DNA from: Ostreococcus lucimarinus
Taxonomy: Eukaryota
Length of the DNA: 64,000 nucleotides
Reading direction: 5' to 3' (one strand)
Assembly: GCA_000092065.1 (NCBI GenBank)
Contig: CP000583.1
Positions within the stretch are counted from its first letter, which is position 1. The number at the start of each line of letters is the position of its first letter. The notes beneath the pieces were generated by a model. That model had not been told where the DNA came from and ran no database searches. It saw only the letters and a program-made list of their open reading frames with translations. Below, piece after piece: positions 3 through 31,016 of the stretch. A program made the position numbers and the translations under genes.

Positions 3-1763
3 GTGCACATCCGCGCTCTTTTGCTTCGAGCGGTCGACTCGTTGCAGCTTCCACCAAATCCGCTCGACAATCTCATCGCGCTCTGCGGTGGACACGAGCA
101 CGTCGCCGAGATGACTGGCCGAAAGCTGCATCAGGTCCGACAGGAGAACGGCAAAATTATGACTCGAAAGCGTATGGACGATACGGACGCCGCGAACGCC
201 AAGCTGATGAACATGACCGAGAAGAGAAAGTTCCAACAAGGTGAAAAACTCATCGCGATCATCTCCGACGCGGCGAGCACCGGTATTTCTCTCCAGGCGG
301 ATAAACGTGTCCAAAATCAGCGTCGACGATGCCATATGACGCTTGAGCTTCCCTGGAGCGCTGATAAGGCAATTCAGCAGTTCGGTCGTTCTCACCGGTC
401 GAATCAGTCGAGTGCTCCGCTCTATCGCATTCTCATGACGCCGTGCGGTGGCGAACGACGCTTCGCGTCCAGTGCAGCCAAACGTCTTCTTTCGCTCGGC
501 GCCTTGCTCAAGGGTGATCGACGCGCGCTCGGCGCCGGCCAAAGTCTGCAAGCGTTTGACATAGATAACGCATACGGCTCTGAAGCGCTGAAGCGCATGA
601 TTTCTGATCTCAAGCGCGACACCGATCCCATGCCGACTGTGCAGTACACGGAGGCGCAGCTTGACGCCATCATCAACATCATTCGAGGCGAGCTCGTGAA
701 AGTCGGTCTCGCCGACGAAGACAATGGCGACGGGAGGTTTACACTCAAAGGCAACAAAACTAAAAATTCTGGTCTGAAGATCTCCACATTTTTGAATCGT
801 CTTCTCGGGATGCCTATCGAAATGCAAGAAATTGCATTCGACTACTTTACGCAAACGTTTGAAGGCGTCATCAAGGATCATAAACAACGTGGCAAGTATG
901 ACTCGGGCGTGACGAATATTACCGGTCAGAGCATCGTCTCAAAGCCAGAACACAACAAAGTTGTTCACAAGTGTCCGACATCTGGTGCTGAGACCAACGT
1001 TCGCTTAGTGGTCAGCGACTCCGGCGTTAAATATCGTCAAGTGTGCGCCATGATGCGCGATTACGAAGAGAATCGAGAGGCCTTGTTCGAAGGATCAAAC
1101 CAGCGTGGACTGTGTGGATTCTACATCGCGACGTACGGGACTATGGCCAAGACGAACCGACCGAACGTCTGTTACGCGCATGAAATTAGGAACATGGGCC
1201 AGCAGAATCAAAATTCGATCAAGAATCCGCAAATGCAGATCACGCGTGCGAATAAGCTCAACGCTTCAAAGATGGACCTGGACAACTTGCAGGCAAACTA
1301 CAAGAGAGTAGAACTTACCGATATTGACGGCGTGCTTCGTTTTCGTGAGCTGTGGAACTTTTGGTATGACTTCTTCAAATCCACGTGTGTGCACGGCAAA
1401 ACGTGTAAGCAGGGTGTAGGGAGGCGGATGTGCGACGCCGGGAAACGTTTCCGGAACGATCTGCTCATTTGCGGCGCCGTGTTACCGGTATGGAATCAGA
1501 TAAATGACCAATTCAAGGGTATGGTGGCCACGGAAGAAGGAACTGTTCGCGAAACTCATTTGAAAGTGATGCGCGCGCAGACCACGCTTGGCGAAAAGAT
1601 TGTCGGATTGAAGCTCGCGTCCATCGCAGTCGAAGATTTTGACGATTACGTTCGATCACTGCAAACCACGATTGAAGACAGAACCAAAGGAGGAGTTGGC
1701 CATGAACGACATGGCGGCGAAATTCACTATGACGAATATTACGATGACGACGATCTGTATTGA
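3..1763 (+). CDS. Strawberry notch (SBNO)-like helicase, C-terminal portion; 5' end lies outside window
   Basis: ORF runs in-frame from window edge (first codon GTG, not a start). Translation carries helicase C-terminal motif 'ELPWSADKAIQQFGRSHRSNQ', which I recognise as the SBNO family signature (QQFGRTHRSNQ). Stop TGA at 1761-1763. Confidence 0.7.
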   Translation: MHIRALLLRAVDSLQLPPNPLDNLIALCGGHEHVAEMTGRKLHQVRQENGKIMTRKRMDDTDAANAKLMNMTEKRKFQQGEKLIAIISDAASTGISLQADKRVQNQRRRCHMTLELPWSADKAIQQFGRSHRSNQSSAPLYRILMTPCGGERRFASSAAKRLLSLGALLKGDRRALGAGQSLQAFDIDNAYGSEALKRMISDLKRDTDPMPTVQYTEAQLDAIINIIRGELVKVGLADEDNGDGRFTLKGNKTKNSGLKISTFLNRLLGMPIEMQEIAFDYFTQTFEGVIKDHKQRGKYDSGVTNITGQSIVSKPEHNKVVHKCPTSGAETNVRLVVSDSGVKYRQVCAMMRDYEENREALFEGSNQRGLCGFYIATYGTMAKTNRPNVCYAHEIRNMGQQNQNSIKNPQMQITRANKLNASKMDLDNLQANYKRVELTDIDGVLRFRELWNFWYDFFKSTCVHGKTCKQGVGRRMCDAGKRFRNDLLICGAVLPVWNQINDQFKGMVATEEGTVRETHLKVMRAQTTLGEKIVGLKLASIAVEDFDDYVRSLQTTIEDRTKGGVGHERHGGEIHYDEYYDDDDLY

Positions 1764-1902
1764 ACACACAAACTGCGAACGGCGTAAACGTCGACGAACG
1801 CTGAAAAATGCTAAACGTCGCGTTACGTCGAAAAGCTCCGCGCGGAGCTCGTAGATAGCTACAACACTACACTAGAACGATTGAATTGAAATTTGTACAC
1901 CA

Positions 1903-3399
1903 TCAACGCACGCTCGACGCGACAGACTTCGCCGGCAAAGCGATGCAGCCGCTCGCGTCGCATCGCAACACGACCTTCGCCACGACGTCGGCGCCATACG
2001 GAATCGTCGTGTGACCAGTCATTATCCATGCACCATCGGTGTCATCGCGTTCGAAAGTCTGCGTGCAGAGTAGAGTCGCGCCATTGGCGACGGTTTCTAA
2101 TCCAGTGAGCGTTGCGAGGCCCTTTTCGATCGTCACGTCGAGGTCGCTCACTATGATACCCTGCGGTCGGCGATCTGGTCGCAAAACAACGTCCCATCCA
2201 TCGAGACGCGCACCCTTATCGACAAGCGGCGCCAGCGCGCTCTGTCGCGTCTTACTCTTTGACCAAATAGCCGCCATCGCTTCTTCGTCGCCCTCGCCCA
2301 GGGCGCGATAAAAGCCTTCGTGTATGGCGACGATTTCGCTCAATTCGGGCACGTCGCGTGGAAGCGCTTGCGAAATCGCGCCGCGCCCACCGCCCGAGGC
2401 GATTCGAGTGCCTTCCTCCTTCGACGTGAGCGCCTCGGACGAATCTAATGTCGCGCGTTTCCACGCTTTCTCCGCCTCTTCATCTTGTTTGTTCCCCGGC
2501 CGGTTCCGAGGAAACGTGCTCAACAAAACATCCCAATTCGGCGCGCCCACGCCAGAGCCGCGAATCATGCCGCTCGTGGAAATGGTCAAGTACCCGCCCG
2601 ACGCCGCCGCGTCACCCATCAGTCGCCGGAAATACCCGCTCCAATCGTCGTTTCGCGTCGGCCACGCGAGCCATCTTCCCGCGCCGGCGCCCGGAAACGC
2701 CTTAACGACGTCCTTCAAAAGCTCCCACCGTCCCGGTCCGACGTCCGCGACGGCCGACGTCGCCGCCGCGCTCTCGCGCTCGACCACGGGCACGACTAAA
2801 ATCCGACTCTGTTCCAACCGCCGTCGATACGGCGTCGCCGCCATCAAATCTCGCTCCACTTTCGCCGCGTCGCCGTACACCACCGCGACGCGCGCCACGT
2901 CCCGCAGCTCCCCCAGCGCGAACCTCGTCTCCTCCCGAAACTTATTCCTCTGAATCACCGTCATCTTCCCCAGCGCCAGCTCTCGCTGCAACCGCTCCAG
3001 ATCTTTCTTCCGCTTATCCGCGTCAACCTTGGCGAGCGTCGCGCACGCCGCGAGCCCGCCCGCGTTCTCCAGCAGCGCCGCCGTCGCCTCGGCGCTCCCG
3101 CCGCTCCGCGCCGCGTCGCCGATCGAGCTCGGCAGCGACAGCGCGAGTCCGAGCGCGAGCGAGCCGACGAGCGTCAGTCGCGGGTAGAACCACGCCGCGC
3201 GCGACTCCCACGTGCGCAGCGTCGCGTCGTCGAAGCGACCGCCGCTGAGCGCATCGGTGCGCGCGTCGTCGCGCGCGCGCTCGACGACGACGTCGTCGTC
3301 GCGACGCGACGCGCGCGAGGACGCGCCGCGCGCGCGGTCGCGCGCGACGCGCGCGCGACGCGGCGTCGCGCGACGCGGCGACGACGCGACGACGCGCAT
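1903..3399 (-). CDS. hypothetical membrane protein with C-terminal NTF2-like (SnoaL/DUF4440-type) domain
   Basis: ATG verified at 3397-3399 (minus). Arg/Ala/Ser-rich presequence, then hydrophobic helix WFYPRLTLVGSLALGLALSLP. C-terminal 'EIVAIHEGFYRALGEGDEEAMAAIWS...GAWIMTGHTT' resembles the DUF4440/SnoaL fold. Stop TGA at 1903-1905. Confidence 0.5.
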   Translation of the reverse strand: MRVVASSPRRATPRRARVARDRARGASSRASRRDDDVVVERARDDARTDALSGGRFDDATLRTWESRAAWFYPRLTLVGSLALGLALSLPSSIGDAARSGGSAEATAALLENAGGLAACATLAKVDADKRKKDLERLQRELALGKMTVIQRNKFREETRFALGELRDVARVAVVYGDAAKVERDLMAATPYRRRLEQSRILVVPVVERESAAATSAVADVGPGRWELLKDVVKAFPGAGAGRWLAWPTRNDDWSGYFRRLMGDAAASGGYLTISTSGMIRGSGVGAPNWDVLLSTFPRNRPGNKQDEEAEKAWKRATLDSSEALTSKEEGTRIASGGGRGAISQALPRDVPELSEIVAIHEGFYRALGEGDEEAMAAIWSKSKTRQSALAPLVDKGARLDGWDVVLRPDRRPQGIIVSDLDVTIEKGLATLTGLETVANGATLLCTQTFERDDTDGAWIMTGHTTIPYGADVVAKVVLRCDASGCIALPAKSVASSVR

Positions 3400-3407
3400 C
3401 GACGTCG

Positions 3408-4517
3408 ATGAGTGACGACGACGCGCGGACGCACTTCGCGCCGCGTCGAGCGCGCGCGATGCGCGCGACGACGGCGACGACGGCGACGGCGAACGCGCCG
3501 CGCGCGCGCGCGAGCGACGGCGACGGCGACGCGCGACGGCGACGCGCGACGCGGCGACGCGACGGCGAGCGCGCCGCGAAAAAAGATGACGACGCGGCGT
3601 CGCGGCGCGCGACGTGCGCGGCGGCGGCGCTGACGGTGGCGATGGCGACGACGACGCACGCGCGACCGGTGCGGGCGTACGCCGATCGACGCACGGTGGT
3701 GCGGCGAGAGATAAAGCGCGAGGACTTTGAGTCGCTGCGAGACTTTGAACGCGCGAGGAGCGGCGAACGCGCGAGCGAGTCGGCGAAAGATTCCGAGCGA
3801 GGGATTCCCGTGACGCTGAGCAGCTCGAGCGAGGGCGAGAACGAGAGCGCGATGATGTACACGGAGCCGCCGAGACGGGCGACGGCGCGGAGGAAGGGGG
3901 CGTTCGACGCGCGACGGGCGGCGAGCGCGGCGTTTCAATGGAGCGTCATAGGGGGAGTGGTGTACAGCGTGCGCCGGGCGCAGAGACGGTCGGAAGACGT
4001 GTCGAAGAATCTCGCGCGACGGTTCGCGTACGCCGACGCGGAGCCTGACGCGCTCGTGGGGACGCGTTGGCGCGTGTACGCGGACATAGGACGAGAATCG
4101 GGCACCTGGATGCCCCCGGCGTGGGGGCAATCCGGCATGCGTTTGGTGTGTCCGATCGCCATCGAGTTTAAAGACAACGGCGTCGTCGAACCCATCGCAA
4201 CGGGCGCGTTCACGCCGACGAAGTTTGAAGCGGGCACGTGGAGCATTGACGGTGACACGCTGCGGTTCAACCTGAAGATGGTCGGCGGCTTGCGGCGAGG
4301 CGACATCGAATTCGGCGAAGAGTCGCTGTACTTTAAAACCTTGGCCTGGGGCGATAAAGTCAGCGCGAACAAAGGCCGCATGCTCGTGAACCAAACTCGG
4401 TTCTTAATCCGTCGCGAATGGCGTTCGGTGGGGACGTTTAAGACGGAGCGCATCGCCGCCGACGAAGACGCCGGCGCGCAACTCGTGCCGCCCATGCGCG
4501 TTCGCGTGCCCGAATGA
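3408..4517 (+). CDS. hypothetical protein (low-complexity Arg/Ala N-terminus, globular C-terminal half)
   Basis: ATG at 3408-3410. C-terminal 200 aa has normal globular composition (WMPPAWGQSGMRLVCPIAIEFKDNG...) with no recognisable family. True start may be a downstream ATG (e.g. 3459). Confidence 0.4.
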   Translation: MSDDDARTHFAPRRARAMRATTATTATANAPRARASDGDGDARRRRATRRRDGERAAKKDDDAASRRATCAAAALTVAMATTTHARPVRAYADRRTVVRREIKREDFESLRDFERARSGERASESAKDSERGIPVTLSSSSEGENESAMMYTEPPRRATARRKGAFDARRAASAAFQWSVIGGVVYSVRRAQRRSEDVSKNLARRFAYADAEPDALVGTRWRVYADIGRESGTWMPPAWGQSGMRLVCPIAIEFKDNGVVEPIATGAFTPTKFEAGTWSIDGDTLRFNLKMVGGLRRGDIEFGEESLYFKTLAWGDKVSANKGRMLVNQTRFLIRREWRSVGTFKTERIAADEDAGAQLVPPMRVRVPE

Positions 4518-4593
4518 GCGGCGACGGTGCACACGCGCACGAAATGAATGAATATTATCATAGTTTTAGGGTTCATACCCCCGTAGTCTACTT

Positions 4594-5145
4594 TTACCCC
4601 GAAATTTGCCTGCTCTCGCACCACGCCGCGATTTCCTCCACCGTCGCCTCCATCGCGTCCGCGTTCGCGTTCGCTCGCACCCAAACCTCCTCGTACGCCT
4701 CCTTCGCCTCCTCCACGACGACTTGAAAGATGTCACACTCCACATTTTCCCGTATCTTCTTTTCCGAGTACCCTCGCGCCGCCAACCGATCGTACAGCGT
4801 CGCCGTGTCGTCCACCAGCGTCAGGCACGTCACCAAGTCGAACCACCGCTCCGGGAACAGCTCGCACGAGTGATAATCCACCACGCACGCCTCCCCTCGC
4901 GCCGCGTGCCCCTCGAGCAGGTCTTCCATGCGATCCAACAGCGCGTCCTCGTCCAGCTCGTGCGTGTCCGCGTCCTCGACGTACGCGCCGTGAAAACCTT
5001 CGCGCGCGCACAGCGCCCCGACGTCGATCCTCTTCGCGTCGATTCGCGTCGCCAGCGCGTCCGCGAGCGTCGTCTTGCCCGCGCCCGGGACGCCGGTGAC
5101 GAGGATGAACGGCCTCGCGCGCGTTGCCGCCGTCGTGGGCGCCAT
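4594..5145 (-). CDS. AK6: adenylate kinase isoenzyme 6 (AK6/Fap7/hCINAP family)
   Basis: ATG verified at 5143-5145 (minus). P-loop 'FILVTGVPGAGKTTLADAL' followed by AK6-like body, 183 aa. The ORF track extends it upstream only through an Arg-rich GTG-initiated region. Confidence 0.8.
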   Translation of the reverse strand: MAPTTAATRARPFILVTGVPGAGKTTLADALATRIDAKRIDVGALCAREGFHGAYVEDADTHELDEDALLDRMEDLLEGHAARGEACVVDYHSCELFPERWFDLVTCLTLVDDTATLYDRLAARGYSEKKIRENVECDIFQVVVEEAKEAYEEVWVRANANADAMEATVEEIAAWCESRQISG

Positions 5146-5556
5146 GACGCGCTTCCGACGCGCCCGAACGTGCCGCCACTCGCCGTCGCGCCGATGGCGT
5201 CGCTCGTTCGCGTCGACCCGCTGCGACGCGTCGCGGCGAGCGCGGACGACGACCGCGGCGACGACGCGAATCACGACGCGCGCGAGCGCACCGCGGGGCC
5301 GCGCTCGATGCTCGAGGGCGAGGCGCGCGAAGAGACGTACGCGCGGTCGCCGTGCGAGGACCTCGCGCGATTGACGCTCGCGGCGCTCCTGTCCGTCGTC
5401 CAGGCGGCGTGCGCGTGCGCGCTGTGCGCGCTTTACGCGGTGCGCGCGGTGACGCCCGCGCCGGTCGAGCGGTTTACGCGCGCGCGGGCGTTCGACGTCG
5501 CGTACGCGGTGTACGCGAGCGCGCTGGGGCGAGCGGCGCATCGAGGCGCGGTTTCG

Positions 5557-6729
5557 ATGACGCGAGGCGGCGGGACGCACTCGACGGCGCACCCGCCGAT
5601 GGCGTGCGGCGGGAAGTCGGTGATAGTGAGCGTGCCGTTCATGAACGATAATTATTCGTACGTCGTCGTGGATTCGGAAACGCGAGAGGCGTGCGCGATC
5701 GATCCCGCGGATCCCGAGGCGACGCTGGAGTGCGCGAAGAAAATCGGCGCGCGGTTGACGACGGTGTTGACGACGCATAAGCATCACGATCACGCGGGAG
5801 GGAACGGGAGGTTGGTGGCGATGATGGCGGAGGAGGAGAACGGTGCGGTCGCGATGAAGGTGTACGGACACGCGCGAGATGGGTGTCACGGGGTGAACGC
5901 GCGCGTGGAGCACGGGGACGTCGTGCGAGTCGGGCGCGGGACGCGGTTTTTGGTGACGCACGTGCCGTGTCACACGCGCGGGCACGTGGTTTATGGATTA
6001 TTAGGGCAGGAATACGAAGACGATGGCGAGACGGCGCCGTCGCTGGCGGACGTCAAGGCGATGTTCACGGGAGACGCCATCATCAACGGCGGCGTCGGGG
6101 CGTTCTTCCACGGCGACGCCAAGGATTGTTACGAAAATCTTCACGAGCGTCTGGCCGACGTCTCGGACGATTGCTTGGTGTTCAGCGGGCACGAGTACAT
6201 GGAGACCAACTTACGGTTCGCTAAAGCGATCGACGTCGCGGATGAAATCACGGCAAATTGCTTTTTCGCCATTCTGTTGCACCGGCATAAGCGCGCGAGC
6301 ACGATGCCGTCGTCGTTTCGCGTCGAGCGTCGACTCAATCCGTTCTTCAGGTGTCGCGATCGAGAGTACTTGAGAACGCTCGTCGAGACGAAGAAGGAGT
6401 TCGCCAAGGCAAAACAACGACCATGGTGGCACAGATACTTTGGGCCCGACGCGAAAACTCTCGCGGAACGGCGAGAGCGAGAGGTGGAAAACGGCGCGCT
6501 CGCTCGCCTCCTCGCGTCGGCGAATCACGAGTTGGCGGCGACCAAGGAAGAGGCAGTGGCGGGTATGAACATGGTGATAAATTTGATGTCGGATGTGTTC
6601 TCTGAGATAGATGCGAGGAACGGCGACGATGAGGAGCGACGCGTGTTCGTCCAGTACGCGAAGCACGCTGCCGCATCGGGCCACACGCGCGTCGTCGTTT
6701 CGCAGCTCATCGCGCCGGGGCTGGTGTAG
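5557..6729 (+). CDS. GLX2: hydroxyacylglutathione hydrolase (glyoxalase II, metallo-beta-lactamase fold) with about 115-aa C-terminal extension
   Basis: ATG at 5557 (alternative 5599). 'NDNYSYVVVD', metal-binding 'THKHHDHAGGN', 'FTGDAIINGGVGAFFHGD' and C-terminal 'PSSFRVERRLNPFFRC', which matches the glyoxalase II NPFMR motif. Stop TAG at 6727-6729. Confidence 0.8.
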   Translation: MTRGGGTHSTAHPPMACGGKSVIVSVPFMNDNYSYVVVDSETREACAIDPADPEATLECAKKIGARLTTVLTTHKHHDHAGGNGRLVAMMAEEENGAVAMKVYGHARDGCHGVNARVEHGDVVRVGRGTRFLVTHVPCHTRGHVVYGLLGQEYEDDGETAPSLADVKAMFTGDAIINGGVGAFFHGDAKDCYENLHERLADVSDDCLVFSGHEYMETNLRFAKAIDVADEITANCFFAILLHRHKRASTMPSSFRVERRLNPFFRCRDREYLRTLVETKKEFAKAKQRPWWHRYFGPDAKTLAERREREVENGALARLLASANHELAATKEEAVAGMNMVINLMSDVFSEIDARNGDDEERRVFVQYAKHAAASGHTRVVVSQLIAPGLV

Positions 6730-6805
6730 AGAGGAGGGAGTTTTAGAAGTAGAGAAATGTATTAATCACACGTCGCACGCACGCTCAAATTTTGATTTGA
6801 AACGC

Positions 6806-7924
6806 TTACTTGCCGAGAACCGTCTCGTTGAAGCGTTCGACTTCCTTGGCGGAGCCGATGCAGAGCGCGGTGCGTTGGTCAACGGTGTTGATTTGGACGT
6901 CCAAAACGGAGCCGCCGGTGACGCCGTCAGACGTCTTACCACCAGACTTTTCGACGAGCAAACCGAACGGCGCGGCTTCGAACGCGAGGCGAAGCTTGGC
7001 CGGGGATTTGGCGGAGGTCGGGTTGGAGAACACACCTTGGTTCTTGGTGAATTGCTGGTACACATCCGGGACGAGGCCGCCAGAGTAGCGGAGCGTGTAG
7101 CGTTCGTCCATGTAGTAGTCCAACAACTTCTTGTAGCCTTCGGTGTCTTGCGCGGCGCGCATGTTCGCCGGAGAGAAGATCTTGGAGGTTTCGTTGATCT
7201 TAATGTTCATGCGGGAGCAGATCCACGGCTCGAAGGAGCCGTCCGGAAGTTGGCAACCCTCCGGCGTGCAGCCGTAGGAGAATTCGTAGACGCCGTCGTC
7301 GAGGGCGACGATGACGGTGGTACGCGGACCGTAAAGCGCGACGAGAGACGTGCGCTGGTCGCGGCCGGTGGCACCGAGCAAACCGTCGGCGCCAGTCCCG
7401 GAGGTCGAGTCCCAGATACCGATGATGGTACCGACGGCCCAGTTGTTGTCGACGATGGAGGAGCCGTCGAGCGGGTCCCAGCACACGGTGTACTCGCCGT
7501 TCGGGTTGCACTGCACAACTTCCGGCTCTTCTTCGGACGCACCGTACGCCACAGTTTCAGAGCTCTTCACGCAATCCCACATGAGGTTATCCGCGATCAC
7601 GTCCACGGAAAGTTGCGCGTCACCAAAGGTGTTCGCGCTCCCCTCCACGGTGACGAGCGCCGAGCGCAACGCCTCGGTGATATCCGCGCAGCAATCGAGC
7701 ATCTCGACAATCACCTTGCGCAACTTTTCGTCCGCGCAGTGCTTACCCAAGATGTTTTCAAGGCTCGGGTACGAGTCTTGCTTCTCCGTCGTCGTGTAGA
7801 ACGACGTCGACGAGGCGCCGTATTCGTGCGCTCGCACGTCCCGGCGCACCGGCTTCGCCGCTTGGCGTCGCTTCGTCGCTTGGTGCGTCTTCGCGGAGCA
7901 TCGCGCGCGCGTCGCCGCGTTCAT
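6806..7924 (-). CDS. SBPASE: sedoheptulose-1,7-bisphosphatase, chloroplast precursor
   Basis: ATG verified at 7922-7924. 'CWDPLDGSSIVDNNWAVGTIIGIW', 'GATGRDQRTSLVALYGPRTT', 'ERYTLRYSGGLVPDV', 'KLRLAFEAAPFGLLVEKSGGKTSDG' match SBPase rather than cytosolic FBPase. Basic N-terminal presequence MNAATRARCSAKTHQATKRR. Confidence 0.85.
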   Translation of the reverse strand: MNAATRARCSAKTHQATKRRQAAKPVRRDVRAHEYGASSTSFYTTTEKQDSYPSLENILGKHCADEKLRKVIVEMLDCCADITEALRSALVTVEGSANTFGDAQLSVDVIADNLMWDCVKSSETVAYGASEEEPEVVQCNPNGEYTVCWDPLDGSSIVDNNWAVGTIIGIWDSTSGTGADGLLGATGRDQRTSLVALYGPRTTVIVALDDGVYEFSYGCTPEGCQLPDGSFEPWICSRMNIKINETSKIFSPANMRAAQDTEGYKKLLDYYMDERYTLRYSGGLVPDVYQQFTKNQGVFSNPTSAKSPAKLRLAFEAAPFGLLVEKSGGKTSDGVTGGSVLDVQINTVDQRTALCIGSAKEVERFNETVLGK

Positions 7925-24519: not shown

Positions 24520-25845
24520 ATGGCGACGCGCGTCGCCGGCGCACCGCGCCCGCGCGTCGTCGCGCGCGCGTCGCGACGCGCGACCGTCGCGCGTTCGAGC
24601 GACGGCGCGTTCGACTGCGCGCACTGGCCGCGGTGCGCGGGATGCGTCGACGTCGACGCGCCGCTGCGACCCGAGGCGGAGGCGCGCGCGCGCGCGTACT
24701 TTGCGTCGCTGGACGCGCGCGCGGGCGAGACGGGCGAGACGCGCGAGACGCACGAGACGTATCGCGGACGCGCGACGCGATGGCGCGTCAAGGCGAAGCT
24801 CGCGGCGCGCGCGCACGAGGGCGAGACGCGACTGGGGCTGTTCGCGCGAGGCTCGCACGCGCTGGAGCCCATCGACGACGCGAGCGGGTGCGCGGTGTCG
24901 GCGATCGCGGTCGAAAGAGCGATGGCGCTGGTGCGAGAGGTGTGCGCGTCGATGGATGTGAAAGGGTACGACGAAACGACGGGGAACGGGGAGCTGCGGT
25001 ACGCGCAAATCGTGGCGCAGACGAGAACGGCGGGACAGTGGGACGCGGCGAAGGACGAAGACGCGCGAGCGGCGATTTCGTTGGTGTGGAACGCGCGGAA
25101 GATGACGCCGCGCGCGATGGCGGTGTGCGAGGAAATCGCGCGAAGGGGTGGAGATTTCGTGCACGGGACGTGGGTGAACGCGCAAGACGCGCGAAATAAC
25201 GTGATTTTTAACAACGACGGGTGGCACCACGCGACGGGCGAGCGAGAAACGCACTCGTACACGCCCAACGGTGCCAAGGTGTTTTATCTGCCGGGAAGCT
25301 TCATGCAAGCCAACGCGGAGGCGTACGGAGAGTTGCTCAAGCGCATGCCGCGACACGTGCCGAAGAACGCGCGCGTCGTCGAGATGTACGCCGGCGTCGG
25401 CGCCATTGGTTTTTCGCTTCTGACGAACGACGCGCTCGGCGTGAAGAGCTTGCGATGCGTGGAATCGTCGAGCGCGGTCGCCGAAGCGTGGGAACGCACG
25501 CGTGGCGAGTTACCAGAAGATTTGCGAGGTCGAGCAAGTTTGCAAGTCGAAAAGGCGGAGCGCATCGCCGTCGAATCGACGAAGGATTGCGACGTTCTCA
25601 TCGTCGACCCGCCTCGAAAGGGACTCGACGCCAAGCTGCGCGCCGTGCTCACCGACGTCGATGGTCTGAGCGATGACTTGCAAACTTTGCTTTACGTGTC
25701 GTGCGGATTTGAATCATTCATGCGCGACTCGGACGAGTTATTGGCGAGCGGCGTGTGGCAAATCCGTCATCACGAGAGCTTCGTGTTCTTCCCAGGCACG
25801 AATCACATCGAAATCTTTGCCGTGTTTTCGCGCACGCCTTATTAG
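24520..25845 (+). CDS. RNA (uracil-5)-methyltransferase, RumA/RlmD/TrmA family (probably organellar rRNA/tRNA m5U MTase)
   Basis: ATG at 24520. Cys cluster 'CAHWPRCAGC' (Fe-S motif of RumA/RlmC type). SAM-MTase motifs 'VVEMYAGVGAIGFSL', 'LIVDPPRKG' and the catalytic 'LLYVSCGFESFMRD'. Confidence 0.7.
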   Translation: MATRVAGAPRPRVVARASRRATVARSSDGAFDCAHWPRCAGCVDVDAPLRPEAEARARAYFASLDARAGETGETRETHETYRGRATRWRVKAKLAARAHEGETRLGLFARGSHALEPIDDASGCAVSAIAVERAMALVREVCASMDVKGYDETTGNGELRYAQIVAQTRTAGQWDAAKDEDARAAISLVWNARKMTPRAMAVCEEIARRGGDFVHGTWVNAQDARNNVIFNNDGWHHATGERETHSYTPNGAKVFYLPGSFMQANAEAYGELLKRMPRHVPKNARVVEMYAGVGAIGFSLLTNDALGVKSLRCVESSSAVAEAWERTRGELPEDLRGRASLQVEKAERIAVESTKDCDVLIVDPPRKGLDAKLRAVLTDVDGLSDDLQTLLYVSCGFESFMRDSDELLASGVWQIRHHESFVFFPGTNHIEIFAVFSRTPY

Positions 25846-25905: not shown

Positions 25906-27153
25906 TTACTCCTCCTTCCTTGGGGGAAGAATGAATATGTTTGAGTGCATCCCGAGACATCCCGTGACTTGCGCGCAAAGCGTCGCGCTTCGGTGAAGCA
26001 ACAAAAATAACGCGGCGCCGAGGAGGATGCCGCCGATGAACATGTTGCCCGCGGGCACAAATGTCGTCATGATCATGATGAACCCGCTCAACCAGTTGAA
26101 CAGCGGCCAATCGGGGTCTGAAACGCGCAGGCGCATGATGCTCATCTCGGCTTCGGCGAAGAGAAGCATGCTCGTGGCGTGCGCCAACGCCAAGTTTGGC
26201 GCAAAATACAAGCACACGCCGTGAAACAACTCGTTGACGATGCAAAACAACGCAATACGCGTCGGATTACGATGCTTTGGCCAGTGTGGTGGCACTTCTT
26301 TTGCCGTGACGGTGCGATAAAACGTCATCGCGCGAGATCGCACGCCGAACAACGCCCCGCCGTCGACGAGCAGGCGCACCACGCCTCGCTCGCCGATGAT
26401 GGGTAGAGTGATCGTAAACGCATTCATCGCGTCGCTCCCAACGAATCCGAAGACAATCATACTTATTTGCAACAGGATCTGCATCTCTTGCACGTCAAAA
26501 GCGGTGTTCACAGGTAACAATCCCGTGTACGTGCTCGAAACCGTGTCGACGGCGAAAAAAATCCGGCTCGACGTCATCATCATCACCGCGAACGCTCTCG
26601 CCGCGGGCGTCGCGATACCGACGGCCAATAAATCAACGAAAATAATCCCGTACACGCACGTGCAAATCGCATCGCATCCGTGATCGACGACTTCTCCCAA
26701 CGGCGACCCGCTCTTCGTTCGTCTCGCTTGCTTACCGTCGATGCCGTCCGCCGTCTGATACGCAAACATTAAAACAGCGCTCACCGCGTACATCCACGAC
26801 GGCGCGGTGTGCGCCAGCACTGGCGTGTGCGTCCAATACAACGCGTACGTCACCATCACCAACATTAATCCGCCGAACGTCAACGCGTTCGGCGCCACCC
26901 ACAGCGGACACCACCGTTCGACGACGTACGTCCACCATCGCTCCAAAAACAGCTTCTCAAACGACGTCGACGGCGGTGATGTATACTTGTACGAGTGCAC
27001 CTGCGCGCACGTGCGCTCGGACGCGCCCACGTGCGCGCGTTTCGCTTCGCGCTCATTTTTTTGGGCGTAGCACACCAAGTCCTCGTTCGACCCATCGTGT
27101 CCACCGCGCGTCAGCACATCGAGGCGCGCGCGTCGAACGGCGGCGATCGGCAT
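25906..27153 (-). CDS. choline/ethanolamine phosphotransferase (AAPT; CDP-alcohol phosphatidyltransferase)
   Basis: ATG verified at 27151-27153. 'PLWVAPNALTFGGL' and CDP-OH-P motif 'DGIDGKQARRTKSGSPLGEVVDHGCD'. Multiple TM helices. Confidence 0.8.
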   Translation of the reverse strand: MPIAAVRRARLDVLTRGGHDGSNEDLVCYAQKNEREAKRAHVGASERTCAQVHSYKYTSPPSTSFEKLFLERWWTYVVERWCPLWVAPNALTFGGLMLVMVTYALYWTHTPVLAHTAPSWMYAVSAVLMFAYQTADGIDGKQARRTKSGSPLGEVVDHGCDAICTCVYGIIFVDLLAVGIATPAARAFAVMMMTSSRIFFAVDTVSSTYTGLLPVNTAFDVQEMQILLQISMIVFGFVGSDAMNAFTITLPIIGERGVVRLLVDGGALFGVRSRAMTFYRTVTAKEVPPHWPKHRNPTRIALFCIVNELFHGVCLYFAPNLALAHATSMLLFAEAEMSIMRLRVSDPDWPLFNWLSGFIMIMTTFVPAGNMFIGGILLGAALFLLLHRSATLCAQVTGCLGMHSNIFILPPRKEE

Positions 27154-27317
27154 CGCGGCGGCTTTCGATCTTCGCGTCCGCGTCGCTTCGGGTCCGCGCG
27201 CGCGACGTCGGCGTCGTCTTCTGCCGTCGCGTTCGGCGGGACTCTCGTCGTTCCAGTGTCAACGAGATCTCATCGCGCGCCCTTCGTCCTCTGCGCGCGA
27301 ATCCGGGACGCGGCGCG

Positions 27318-29231
27318 ATGGCAGGCGGTGTTGCGGTGGCGTCGGGAGAGATCCGGCACGGCGATAGGGTCTTCAGTGGGAACTCTGGCCCCGCGCAGCG
27401 CGAACAACCCATAAACAAAGAACTCATCGCGCACTTCAAAAGCAAGGGAGACAGTGTGTCCTGGGGCATCGCTGCAAGCATAGAGAACTACGAGGAGGAT
27501 ACGAAGAGGCCAGTGTTGTCGGGCGCATGCATCGCGTCGCTCTACGACCAAGAGACCGAGCGCGAGTTGGCAGAGGAGGTGGAGAACAGAATTGAGCGGG
27601 TGCTAAGCGACGACGCAGCCTTGTTGAAAATACGTCGATATTTGAAGACCTTCCACGCGGACGAGCGCGAATGGGATGTGAGAACGTGTGCAGCGGCGGC
27701 TCGAGGGGGCAACTTGGAGTGTTTGAAATATCTGCACGAGCACGGGTGCGCGTGGGATAAGAGTGCGTGTGAAGCGGCGGCTCAAGGTGACCACTTGGAG
27801 TGTTTGAAATATCTGCATGCGAACGGGTGCACATGCGATGAGAGTGCGTGTTTAGCAGCGGCTGAAGGTGGTCACTTGGAGTGTTTGAAATATCTGCACG
27901 AGCACGGGTACCCATGGAGTGAGTGGGTGAGTTTAGCAGCGGCCGAAGGCGGTCACTTGGAGTGTTTGAAATATCTGCACGAGCACGGGTGCGTATGGAA
28001 TAAGAAAACGTGTCGAGCAGCGGCTCGAGGTGGCGACTTGGAGTGTTTGAAATATCTGCACGAGCACGGGTGCGCGTGGGATGAGAGTGCGTGTGAAGCG
28101 GCGGCTCGATGTGGTCATTTGGAGTGTTTGAAATATCTGCATGAGCACGGGTGCCCGTGCGATGAGAGTGCGTGTGAAGCGGCGGCTAGCTGTGGCGACT
28201 TGGAGTTTTTGAAAGACCTGCACGAGCACGGGTGCCCATGGGATGAGAGTGCGTGTGAAGCGGCGGCTCTAGGTGGTCACTTGGAGTGTTTGAAATATCT
28301 GCACGAGCACGGGTGCGTATGGAATAAGAAAACGTGTCGAGCAGCGGCTCGAGGTGGCGACTTGGAGTGTTTGAAATATCTGCACGAGCACGGGTGCGCG
28401 TGGGATAAGAGTGCGTGTTCTGCAGCGGCTGGACGCGGTCACTTGGAGTGTTTGAAATATCTGCACGAGCACGGGTACCCATGGAGTGAGTGGGTGAGTT
28501 TAGCAGCGGCCGAAGGCGGTCACTTGGAGTGTTTGAAATATCTGCACGAGCACGGGTGCGTATGGAATAAGAAAACGTGTCGAGCAGCGGCTCGAGGTGG
28601 CGACTTGGAGTGTTTGAAATATCTGCACGAGCACGGGTGCCCGTGCGATGAGAGTGCGTGTGAAGCGGCGGCTAGCTGTGGCGACTTGGAGTTTTTGAAA
28701 GACCTGCACGAGCACGGGTGCCCATGGGATGAGAGTGCGTGTGAAGCGGCGGCTCTAGGTGGTCACTTGGAGTGTTTGAAATATCTGCACGAGCACGGGT
28801 GCGTATGGAATAAGAAAACGTGTCGAGCAGCGGCTCGAGGTGGCGACTTGGAGTGTTTGAAATATCTGCACGAGCACGGGTGCCCGTGCGATGAGAGTGC
28901 GTGTGAAGCGGCGGCTAGCTGTGGCGACTTGGAGTGTTTGAAATATCTGCGCGAGCACGGGTGCCCGTGCGATGAGAGTGCGTGTGAAGCGGCGGCTCTA
29001 GGTGGTCACTTGGAGTTTTTGAAAGACCTGCATGAGCACGGGTGCGCATGGGATAAGAGTGCGTGTTCTGCAGCGGCTCGAGGTGGTCACTCGGAGTGCT
29101 TGAAGTACTTGCACACGCACGGGTGCCCCGGGAATAAGCGTGCGTCTGAAGCGGCGGCTGGAGGTGACGTCATGGAGTGTTTGAGTTTGAAGTACTTGCA
29201 TAGATCGCTCAAACGAAAGATTTACAGGTAG
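27318..29231 (+). CDS. protein composed of about 17 tandem 30-aa ankyrin-like repeats (LECLKYLHEHGC.WD.S.C.AAA.GGH)
   Basis: ATG verified at 27318. After a 130-aa unique N-term the ORF is an in-frame 90-bp tandem array. The repeat class resembles the short ankyrin-type repeats common in protists and giant viruses. Confidence 0.65.
   Translation: MAGGVAVASGEIRHGDRVFSGNSGPAQREQPINKELIAHFKSKGDSVSWGIAASIENYEEDTKRPVLSGACIASLYDQETERELAEEVENRIERVLSDDAALLKIRRYLKTFHADEREWDVRTCAAAARGGNLECLKYLHEHGCAWDKSACEAAAQGDHLECLKYLHANGCTCDESACLAAAEGGHLECLKYLHEHGYPWSEWVSLAAAEGGHLECLKYLHEHGCVWNKKTCRAAARGGDLECLKYLHEHGCAWDESACEAAARCGHLECLKYLHEHGCPCDESACEAAASCGDLEFLKDLHEHGCPWDESACEAAALGGHLECLKYLHEHGCVWNKKTCRAAARGGDLECLKYLHEHGCAWDKSACSAAAGRGHLECLKYLHEHGYPWSEWVSLAAAEGGHLECLKYLHEHGCVWNKKTCRAAARGGDLECLKYLHEHGCPCDESACEAAASCGDLEFLKDLHEHGCPWDESACEAAALGGHLECLKYLHEHGCVWNKKTCRAAARGGDLECLKYLHEHGCPCDESACEAAASCGDLECLKYLREHGCPCDESACEAAALGGHLEFLKDLHEHGCAWDKSACSAAARGGHSECLKYLHTHGCPGNKRASEAAAGGDVMECLSLKYLHRSLKRKIYR
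27688..29200 (+). repeat. 90-bp coding tandem array (about 17 copies, most over 90 percent identical) with a 540-bp higher-order repeat
   Basis: Identical 60-90 nt strings recur at 90-bp spacing. For example 'gggtacccatggagtgagtgggtgagtttagcagcggccgaaggcggtcacttggagtgtttg' occurs at 27903 and 28443. Antisense ORFs of identical sequence (27933-28229 vs 28500-28715) confirm this. Confidence 0.85.
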
Positions 29232-29254
29232 CGGAAAAATTACGCGAATTGAAA

Positions 29255-30193
29255 TCAAATACCTACGAAATCGGCGTACGCCGGACAGAGCCTACGACAG
29301 TGGCGAAATAAACGCATCGCTTCCATGGCGTCGCCCGAGGTCTCCGCGTCCACGGCGCGCTTGTGCAGGGCGTACGCCTCGGCGCCGACGGCGTCGGCGA
29401 ACGCCGGCGGCTCGCGAGCGTACATGACGTCGGTGCGAATGATGAATTTCACCGCGCCCTCGCCCACGGGCGCGCCCTCGTGCGGAATGTCTTGTCGAAA
29501 CACCAGAGCAGTGCCTCGCGCGCACGGCGCGGCGTCGGCGATCCATTCATCCGGCCAACGGTATCGATCGTCCTCGTCGCGCACGAATTTCGACGGCTCA
29601 AAGTCGCTCGGCGGCGCGAACATCGACGTCTCCCCACCTCGCGCGCAATCGTTCAGGTACACCAAGACGCTATAAAACGAACGCGTATTGAAATCTTCGA
29701 TCGTCGCCCCGTCGGTGTGCGGTGAAAAGTGCCCGCGTCCAGAGTATCGATTAAACAACAAGTGTTCGTTCACGCCTCGCGCCACCCATCGTCCGCGCGC
29801 CCCCGCGCCGTGCGTCTCATCCTCCTCAATCGTGATCTCCGGCGTCGCGTGCGGTTTCAATCGCGCCCACAGCGCTTCCGCGACCGTCTTCGACATCACC
29901 TCCACCGTATCCGCGTTCCTGAACGATTTTCTATTCCTCGCCTCCGCGTCCTCGTGCCAAAAGCTCAACCGTCCCGACCGCCGCGCGGCGTCCACCAGCC
30001 TTTCGCACTCCGTCGCCGTCAGCACGTCCCGCGCGACGAACGCATCGAGCGGGCTCGCGCACCTTCGCGCGCTCGTCGTCGCTTCGTCACCGCGTCGCTC
30101 GACCGCGTCGTCGAACGGTTTCGCGTCTTCGGCGCACGCCTTCTCCACGGGCGTCACCGCGCTCTTATCGACGTCCACGAACGCGCGCGACAT
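29255..30193 (-). CDS. prolyl 4-hydroxylase-like 2OG-Fe(II) oxygenase
   Basis: ATG verified at 30191-30193. 'HTDGATIEDFNTRSFYSVLVYLNDCARGGETSMF' is the P4Hc HxD...YLND..GGET signature; a distal His in 'PHEG' follows. The longer ORF-track version (to 30580) is antisense to the ABA4 gene and rejected. Confidence 0.6.
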   Translation of the reverse strand: MSRAFVDVDKSAVTPVEKACAEDAKPFDDAVERRGDEATTSARRCASPLDAFVARDVLTATECERLVDAARRSGRLSFWHEDAEARNRKSFRNADTVEVMSKTVAEALWARLKPHATPEITIEEDETHGAGARGRWVARGVNEHLLFNRYSGRGHFSPHTDGATIEDFNTRSFYSVLVYLNDCARGGETSMFAPPSDFEPSKFVRDEDDRYRWPDEWIADAAPCARGTALVFRQDIPHEGAPVGEGAVKFIIRTDVMYAREPPAFADAVGAEAYALHKRAVDAETSGDAMEAMRLFRHCRRLCPAYADFVGI

Positions 30194-30323
30194 CGCCTCG
30201 ACGACGGCGTCGACGACGGTCGCGTCGCCGCCGCCGTCGTCGCCGCCGCGCGCGTCGACGCTCGACCGTTCGGTCGACCGTTCGCGGCGCGGCGCGGCGA
30301 GCTGTGCGGCACTGTCGAGCGCG

Positions 30324-31016
30324 ATGGAACGCGTCGCGCGCGCGTCGTCGCGCGCGGCGACGGTCGGGGCGTCGCGTGCGGGGACGGGGAACGCGCGCGC
30401 GACGACGGCGTCGCGCGGCGCGCGCGCGACGACGGCGCGGCGCGCGCCGGCGGCGGCGTTTCTTTCGTCGGTGTCTCGAAAGTGTCGTCGCGGAAGGACG
30501 ACGACGACGGGAGCGCTGGCGATTCCGGACACCGCGTTCACGGTGGCGACGATGGCGGTGATGCCGATGTACGCGCTCATGATCGCGAGCCCGCGGTCGA
30601 AGCGCGTGCTCGCGATGGTGGAGTCGAAGGCGTTGTTTTGGGTGCTCGGAGCGTGTTATCTGTGCGCGGCGGGGGCGTCGTTGGCCTCGGCGCACGTGTT
30701 CGACGCGGCGAGAGCGGTGCTGAATGATCGTTCAGCGCCTTTGGTGACGAAATTCGTGACGCTGGTGAGCGAATTCATGGCGACGTCGGAGACGGCGGCG
30801 AGCGCGTGGGTACACCTGTTGTCGTTGGATTTCTTCGTGGCGAGATTCGTGTACTTGGATTCGGCCAAGTATAGCTCGAGCGCGGGGGATTTGGTGGCGC
30901 GGATACCGGTACGGCACTCACTTATTTTGTGCTGCATGTTCGGACCGCTCGGGCTGATTTCGCACGCGCTGACGCGGGCAATTTGGAACACGTACGTCGT
31001 CGTCGACGTGGTGTGA
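30324..31016 (+). CDS. ABA4: ABA4-like (DUF4281) plastid membrane protein involved in neoxanthin synthesis
   Basis: ATG verified at 30324. Transit-peptide-like N-term. 'TMAVMPMYALMIASPRS' and 'ASAWVHLLSLDFFVARFVY...RHSLILCCMFGPLGLISHALTRAI' align closely with my recollection of Arabidopsis ABA4 (ASAWIHLLVVDLFAARQVY...RHSVSLCLLFCPVGIVSHFVTKAI). Confidence 0.7.
   Translation: MERVARASSRAATVGASRAGTGNARATTASRGARATTARRAPAAAFLSSVSRKCRRGRTTTTGALAIPDTAFTVATMAVMPMYALMIASPRSKRVLAMVESKALFWVLGACYLCAAGASLASAHVFDAARAVLNDRSAPLVTKFVTLVSEFMATSETAASAWVHLLSLDFFVARFVYLDSAKYSSSAGDLVARIPVRHSLILCCMFGPLGLISHALTRAIWNTYVVVDVV

Follow-up and report, generated by a model that had tools for sequence, protein, structure and literature searches.

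We analysed a 64,000-nucleotide (nt) window of nuclear DNA from Ostreococcus lucimarinus CCE9901 (contig CP000583.1). All coordinates refer to this window, and labels beginning with L or P denote comparison contigs and proteins, respectively. The plus strand contains a single open reading frame (ORF) that runs from an ATG at 27318 to a stop codon at 29229-29231 and encodes 637 amino acids (aa). It is the only frame open across the whole of a tandem repeat array. The ORF consists of three parts, an N-terminal module of ~100 aa, 18 repeats of 27 residues and a short basic tail. The module is conserved between residues 11 and 97 (27348-27608, plus strand) and is specific to the family to which the gene belongs; tblastn with the family consensus recovers it at 78% identity (E=1.6e-41). 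It is followed by a degenerate ankyrin unit, unit 0 (RRYLKTFHADEREWDVRTCAAAARGGN; 27633-27713, plus strand), which lies in register, 81 bp before the first full unit. Unit 0 retains L4, K5, H8, W14, D15, C19 and the AAA triplet, and the structural model places helices at residues 99-112 and 121-129. The 18 full units of 81 bp, or 27 residues, are arranged head to tail between 27714 and 29171 (plus strand) and share the consensus LECLKYLHEHGC[APV]W[DN][EK]S[AT]C[ER]AAAxGG[HD]. The ORF closes with a degenerate last unit and the basic tail (MECLSLKYLHRSLKRKIYR, ending at the stop codon; 29172-29231, plus strand), the counterpart of a '..KYLREH.SRKRKTSS*' tail in relatives. Within this segment, a 6-bp tandem duplication (GTTTGA GTTTGA, 29172-29200) has changed the start of the 19th unit from LECLKYLH to MECLSLKYLH.

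An earlier note on this DNA, made from the sequence alone, had described an in-frame tandem array behind a non-repetitive N-terminus of ~130 aa, and both Tandem Repeats Finder (TRF) and the ORF agree with this. TRF reports one array (27671-29184) with a period of 81 bp, 18.7 copies, 81% matches, 0% indels and a score of 1813. Phasing from 27714 yields 18 units of exactly 81 bp in perfect register, plus one degenerate unit at each end, so that the earlier estimate of about 17 units was roughly right in number. The unit length of 90 bp or 30 aa given there does not hold. Self-identity reaches 0.79 at a lag of 81 but falls to 0.30, the background level, at a lag of 90, and the motif quoted in the note itself counts 27 residues. 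A proposed 540-bp higher-order repeat fails in the same way, with a self-identity of 0.24 at lag 540 and only 30 of 162 positions matching between the pair cited in its favour (27903 and 28443). Autocorrelation and direct comparison thus rule out both the 90-bp period and the 540-bp repeat.

Many units are indeed identical, as had been noted, and several sets match at 81 of 81 nt (4=8=11=14, 3=10, 7=13 and 12=15). In order, the unit types read A B C D E F G D H C D I G D I J K L, which is a mosaic rather than one regular higher-order period. The longest exact internal duplicate measures 255 bp (28143-28397, plus strand) and has its partner at 28629-28883, a lag of 486 bp or 6 units. A second one of 204 bp (27870-28073, plus strand) recurs at 28437-28640 with a lag of 567 bp or 7 units, and a third of 175 bp links 28518-28692 to 28761-28935 at a lag of 243.

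The repeats are of ankyrin type, as previously suggested. The product matches the Pfam profiles Ank_4 (197.7 bits, cut-off 22.7, E=9.7e-60, in 14 stretches), Ank_2 (175.8 bits, cut-off 27.3, E=2.5e-52) and Ank (106.5 bits, cut-off 21.1). An AlphaFold2 model has a predicted local distance difference test (pLDDT) score above 90 for most of residues 121-600. In this prediction each unit is free of strands and consists of two 9-residue helices, joined by a 3-residue turn and followed by a 6-residue loop; the two antiparallel helices of each repeat stack as a solenoid. Foldseek finds ankyrin-1 as the best match (E=1e-14), with designed ankyrin repeat proteins (DARPins) also among the top hits. When superposed over its full length, the model fits solved ankyrin solenoids poorly (template modelling (TM) scores of 0.2-0.36), as expected if the superhelix differs.

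Compared with the canonical ankyrin repeat (PF00023, PF12796 and PF13637; ankyrin-1, DARPins), the unit shares the profile matches, the helix-turn-helix, the stacked solenoid and the '..AA..GHLE.VK.LLE.GA' core, which is kept in each repeat as '..AAA.GGHLE.LKYL.E.GC' together with the two ankyrin helices. It departs from the canonical form in its length (27 instead of ~33 residues), in a 6-residue loop in place of the β-hairpin finger, and in the start of helix 1, where [SKW]-[ATV]-C-[ERLS], typically [ST]-A-C-x, stands instead of TPLH. In line with this, most gaps in HMMER alignments to DARPins, typically 6 residues per repeat, fall in the inter-repeat loop, the site of the canonical β-hairpin. 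The loop also carries a conserved Cys and Trp (GC.W) that set it apart from the canonical repeat. Since the superfamily is recognised in sequence and fold but the 33-residue length, the β-hairpin and TPLH are missing, the repeat is, as far as sequence and model can tell, a shortened 'fingerless' ankyrin, best called a short-ankyrin variant, and the product would form a continuous fingerless α-solenoid. Such a solenoid would provide a protein-binding surface, with the variable positions 13-20 and 24-27 presumably equivalent to those by which canonical ankyrin repeats bind their targets. The activity shared by the family would come from the constant N-terminal module, and the basic tail may serve to send the protein into the nucleus.

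How the array came about can be read from its own units. Their mean nt identity is 0.84 within the gene and 0.73-0.78 to units of related genes. For 17 of the 17 units extracted by motif scan, the nearest unit lies in the same gene, which implies expansion or homogenisation in place. The array has therefore been amplified and homogenised where it stands, and the proposal of recent expansion or concerted evolution is borne out by these nearest neighbours and by the exact blocks of up to 255 bp. Growth and homogenisation of the array would be due to gene conversion together with unequal recombination or slippage among its 81-bp units; the first four units and the last would stay stable and the inner units vary. 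Every gain or loss of a unit would leave the reading frame intact, 81 being divisible by three, and the frame of the 637-aa ORF is kept in complete alleles of 8, 10 and 12 units.

Variation is unevenly distributed along the unit. Hardly any change is seen in helix 2 (positions 1-12) or in the AAA triplet, synonymous sites included. Most of the variation falls on positions 13-20 and 24-27, where the ratio of nonsynonymous to synonymous differences (pN/pS) reaches 0.91; the ratio drops to 0.40 for positions 1-12 and to 0 for AAA. Positive selection at the variable positions was considered and is not demonstrated by a pN/pS of 0.91 obtained from small counts and non-independent units. The GC content, described earlier as host-like, is only partly so, with a GC content at third codon positions (GC3) of 0.60 in the array and 0.75-0.81 in neighbouring genes.

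In another Ostreococcus-type lineage (L028, L029, L031 and L026), one locus with flanks 99.5% identical likewise carries arrays that differ by multiples of 27 aa, so that the instability of unit number extends across the family. The products of that locus measure 276, 334 and 357 aa, and a 97%-similar copy reaches 629 aa.

The gene as a whole is a recent arrival. It lies in an inserted cassette of ~2.0 kb (27233-29242, to which no strand is assigned) that is absent from an empty allele, L051, and from other Ostreococcus lineages. In L051, with flanks 99.8-99.9% identical to the window, position 27232 is joined to 29243 through 53 unrelated bp without any trace of the gene. On chromosome 3 of O. 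tauri and in two other Ostreococcus lineages, the two flanking genes lie 110-220 bp apart, and no ankyrin or module sequence was found between them. It follows that the empty state is ancestral and that 27233-29242 is a lineage-specific insertion, one that is not present in every O. lucimarinus-type contig. The breakpoint at 29243 is common to L001, L002, L050 and L051, and a scaffold gap in L002 has the same edges as the cassette. At its right end, 11 nt separate the stop codon from the insertion edge. At its left end, the cassette begins with an 85-nt leader 5' of the ATG (27233-27317, plus strand), whose sequence is kept in family members in other genomic contexts. Its in-frame translation, '..SVNEISS.ALR.L...PGR..MA', recurs in L024, L044, L046 and L047, and nucleotide matches to relatives start 200-300 bp upstream of the ATG.

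The host gene on the left encodes a CDP-alcohol phosphatidyltransferase (25906-27153, minus strand; Pfam PF01066), lies outside the feature with its start codon 80 bp from the insertion edge, and occurs as the exact protein on 391 contigs. The one on the right, likewise outside the feature, encodes a 2-oxoglutarate (2OG)-Fe(II) oxygenase ('P4H-like'; 29255-30580, minus strand; PF13640, E=2.9e-8). The flanking proteins are found unchanged on hundreds of marine metagenome contigs. Relatives of the ankyrin gene sit in unrelated genomic contexts, and we picture the gene as a dispersed copy of a Mamiellophyceae multigene family that would have landed between two housekeeping genes, and only in the lineage of O. 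lucimarinus. The adjacency of the oxygenase, which had been thought notable, loses its meaning here, since it was created by the insertion between oxygenase and phosphatidyltransferase and is not conserved among relatives. A functional link to the 2OG oxygenase is thereby ruled out. Within the oxygenase ORF, the 5' part codes for an Arg/Ala-rich N-terminus and contains GC-rich short tandem repeats with periods of 18-27 bp (30349-30458).

The architecture of the gene recalls the Mamiellales family HOM000035, which has C-terminal ankyrin repeats, an N-terminal part without a database match and no known function (Moreau et al. 2012, Genome Biol 13:R74, PMC3491373). This family counts 149 copies in Bathycoccus and 17 in O. 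lucimarinus (PMC3491373). The window gene shares C-terminal ankyrins, an N-terminus without a Pfam match and membership of a Mamiellales multigene family, and so appears to fit HOM000035, matched by description rather than by the pico-PLAZA gene list. The paper describes neither the 27-aa period nor the amplification of units within a gene nor the insertion polymorphism seen here. The window gene is thus a new member, with unusually uniform units, of a Mamiellophyceae ankyrin family that is known but uncharacterised in function.

We consider it probable that the locus holds a predicted nuclear O. lucimarinus gene, made up of the module, 18 short-ankyrin repeats amplified in place and the tail, which arrived as a dispersed, lineage-specific insertion. 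Several observations weigh against this interpretation. The overall pN/pS between units is 0.65, which is compatible with weak constraint. The gene is also dispensable, as empty, array-less and Psf3-replaced alleles exist. In a collection of 15 billion proteins, no NCBI or UniRef protein is identical or more than 90% identical to the 637-aa product, although the collection does contain reference proteins of neighbouring genes, such as XP_001416797.1 of O. lucimarinus CCE9901, which is identical to the window ORF at 24520-25845. The lack of a matching annotated protein means that the reference annotation may lack the gene model, and the gene seems to be either unannotated or annotated differently. 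Most differences in unit number come from short-read assemblies, which are unable to resolve exact repeats of 255 bp. The AlphaFold2 model of the module, at a pLDDT of 61.6, is too poor for a fold search. Finally, the mapping of the variable positions onto the ankyrin binding face is taken from DARPin library design, and nuclear targeting by the tail is conjectured from its basic composition.

The presence of other sequences behind the same module poses the question whether the cassette of leader, module and variable 3' cargo is a mobile or gene-capturing element, in which the ankyrin array would be one of several cargoes. We regard this as unlikely, yet it is the strongest of the alternatives. 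The left insertion edge, 85 nt 5' of the ATG, coincides with the start of the leader conserved in the family. In L001, everything after residue 113 is replaced by a copy of the GINS subunit Psf3, giving a 329-aa product (P0245) found on 12 contigs from three sources. This allele is flanked by a 19-bp direct repeat of 27214-27232, behind which the 53-bp sequence of the empty site is retained. In L006, P0244 and L023, Psf3 continues the frame after one to three ankyrin units. The Psf3 cargo occupies 6763-7392 (reverse complement) in L001, 5998-6587 in L006 and 1287-1520 in L023. This cargo has no introns; its identity is ~74% to P0228, the abundant Psf3 of Ostreococcus, and ~94% to P0243, a rare Psf3 that stands alone. 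The same Psf3 DNA has different junctions on both sides in L001 and L006. That Psf3 was ancestral at this site is rejected by its native locus in related lineages, which is at a different place and reads HAD hydrolase, Psf3, LON-domain gene. A further allele, on the 962-kb contig L050 (flanks 99.8-99.9% identical), has only the N-terminal part, with 27669 joined to 29243. A 7-bp sequence, CGCGAAT, occurs at 27666-27672 and again at 29243-29249, once on each side of array and tail.

Beyond this locus, relatives typically combine the module with 3-19 ankyrin units and an 'SRKRKTSS' tail. In other relatives (P0201, P0204, P0206, P0218, P0223 and P0283, with contigs L091 and L092), the module is fused to an MCM6 C-terminal winged helix (7.8e-16), to Hat1_N (2.2e-23) or to a DUF4379 zinc-finger domain; a fusion to an MCM3 winged helix is weak (1.2e-4) and below the cut-off. 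Judged from these domain matches, the partners appear strikingly biased towards replisome and chromatin proteins. The contigs L091 and L007 are 89% identical through the neighbouring gene, the leader and the module, and then continue as MCM6_C and ankyrin, respectively.

Against a mobile element stands the content of the insertion itself. Apart from the gene, its 2 kb contain no long ORF on either strand (short antisense ORFs were unscreened), so that no transposase, integrase or reverse transcriptase could fit. The insertion has neither a poly-A tail nor terminal inverted repeats, and the window allele lacks a target-site duplication; 53 bp of the empty site are missing from it instead. The block duplicated in relatives extends 4 kb past the gene, a pattern that favours segmental duplication over a compact element. 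Some of the fusions may be read-through ORFs of prokaryote-style gene finders, or chimeric contigs. The swapping of cargo could reflect a gene-capturing element, ordinary birth-and-death with domain shuffling, or in part artefacts of gene calling and assembly.

The alternative replisome-protein cargoes are the most interesting lead to emerge from the locus. They allow a bolder proposal, which we put forward as speculation and hold to be improbable. Here, leader and module would form the unchanging half of a gene system in two parts that evolves fast and is possibly mobile. The exchangeable C-terminal half would be either a unit-shuffling, hypervariable ankyrin solenoid or a replisome or chromatin protein, captured whole or in part, such as GINS Psf3, the MCM6 C-terminal winged helix, perhaps the MCM3 winged helix, or the HAT1 N-terminal domain. 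This would fit a conflict system, for instance one of integrated-decoy type that senses or interferes with factors targeting the host replication fork, such as those of prasinoviruses. If true, the insertion site in O. lucimarinus would be a hot spot of several alleles, namely empty, module-only, ANK(n), ANK-Psf3 and Psf3. If cargo swapping is real, it offers a route to the function of a family unexplained since 2012.

Returning to the interpretation as a predicted gene amplified in place, one may ask whether the ORF is instead a decaying, non-functional remnant of a recent insertion, open only because changes of 81 bp preserve the frame. The existence of the empty L051 and the array-less L050, a pN/pS near 1 at the variable positions, the atypical codon usage (GC3 0.60) and the lack of a matching annotated protein would all agree with decay, as would frame-shifting indels within the array of L003. 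The latter, however, resemble the consensus noise of a mixed population. The module, for which Pfam gave nothing at E<0.1, has 15 invariant and 40 nearly invariant columns in an alignment of relatives that share 54-73% identity with the window module, and the helix-2 and AAA positions of the repeat are likewise constrained. No stop codon interrupts the 1.9 kb, nor the independent alleles of 8, 10 and 12 units. Decay is therefore, in our view, a doubtful explanation, somewhat less likely than an element that captures genes.

The length of the array, or part of its internal order, could also be an artefact of the window's assembly. To judge this, arrays were compared on metagenome contigs whose flanks are 98-99.9% identical to the window. 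L003, a 957-kb contig with noisy indels, has ~18 units, L019, L049 and L052 have 12, L020 has 10, L004 and L053 have 8, and L048 has ~3. L002, L005 and L054 show gaps of 100 N at the array, and L021, L022 and L055-L057 end within it. All complete arrays begin with A B C D and end with L but differ in their interiors, and several interior unit variants recur in independent samples. The earlier expectation of a copy-number polymorphic, collapse-prone region is thus met in so far as arrays differ or break between assemblies. Short reads cannot span exact repeats as long as 255 bp, so that true polymorphism and collapse are inseparable in these data, and both are likely to contribute. For the window itself, an artefact would be compatible with exact internal repeats of 175-255 bp and with the contigs examined, whose arrays differ from the window in the number or order of units, hold N gaps or are broken. 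We nevertheless find it quite unlikely. The independent L003 spans the locus with a difference in total length of only 9 bp, the window array has zero indels and a perfect 81-bp register over 18 units, and the O. lucimarinus reference is, we assume, Sanger-sequenced and finished.

The repeat class itself extends well beyond green algae. Its hallmark, a 27-residue period with a GC.W loop and an AA..GHLE.LKY core, is present in the window gene. Of the 120 best homologues, 118 share the 27-aa period; the set includes proteins from Cymbomonas, Bathycoccus, Balamuthia and Seminavis. In IMG/VR, viral contigs as long as pandoravirus genomes (1.84-2.47 Mb) also carry many copies of this class, as do metagenome bins of giant viruses, and 12 of 12 viral matches tested have period 27. 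An earlier assignment to a class of protists and giant viruses therefore holds once the period is corrected. PDB sequence matches include no solved structure of the 27-residue class, and literature searches for a described 27-residue ankyrin class returned nothing specific. The giant-virus and protist repeats share the period and the 'GHLE.LKY.HE.GCPWDE..C..AA' motif with the window gene. In contrast to it, they lack the N-terminal module, and their adjacent repeats are 40-79% nt-identical, compared with 82% here, where many units are 100% identical. An origin of the gene from a giant virus, as an endogenous viral element or by horizontal transfer, could draw on these viral copies, on the low GC3 and on a relative, P0188, encoded beside a DUF5906 protein and a sub-threshold Peptidase_S74 protein, but is the least probable of the alternatives and by some way improbable, given that the module has no relative among 2.9 million IMG/VR contigs, that the best homologues include cellular genomes, that the closest relatives are Ostreococcus-type contigs, and that the 2-kb insertion contains no other viral gene, let alone a hallmark gene.

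Coding arrays under concerted evolution are known from fungal adhesins and from ankyrin genes of Anaplasma/Ehrlichia and Wolbachia, the latter genes being known to vary in repeat number. As in those systems, units are gained and lost in frame, edges are stable, the interior is homogenised and strains differ. Here, by contrast, the array belongs to a nuclear gene of a picoalga, and the whole gene is in addition polymorphic for presence and absence. The locus is a clear and datable case of amplification, within a gene, of a 27-residue fingerless ankyrin unit. It also presents a family member as a recent, dispensable insertion, whose repeat domain has been lost or swapped for a copy of a replication protein in other assembled genomes of the species. 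For users of the genome, the 1.5-kb array is a documented assembly hazard, and the gene is apparently missing from the reference protein set.

Two further genomic settings of the family were observed. On L023, a 1.1-kb piece comprising the leader, the module, 3 ankyrin units and the start of Psf3 lies amid unrelated DNA of 46-55% GC (1-415 and 1521-5970). The flanks contain a fragment of an EcoRI-like adenine methyltransferase; a search of them for viral relatives found none, and L023 could be a chimeric contig. On L007 (3654-9157) and L091 (3647-4807), family genes lie beside an FG-GAP repeat protein, a coiled-coil protein and a 733-aa protein with DUF5906, which we take to be a D5-like helicase domain. 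The coiled-coil protein has a weak, sub-threshold match to Peptidase_S74 (endosialidase chaperone). The DNA of this region is ~53% GC, and it could be outlier-chromosome or virus-like in nature. Upstream blocks of ~4 kb are common to several contigs at 80-90% identity.

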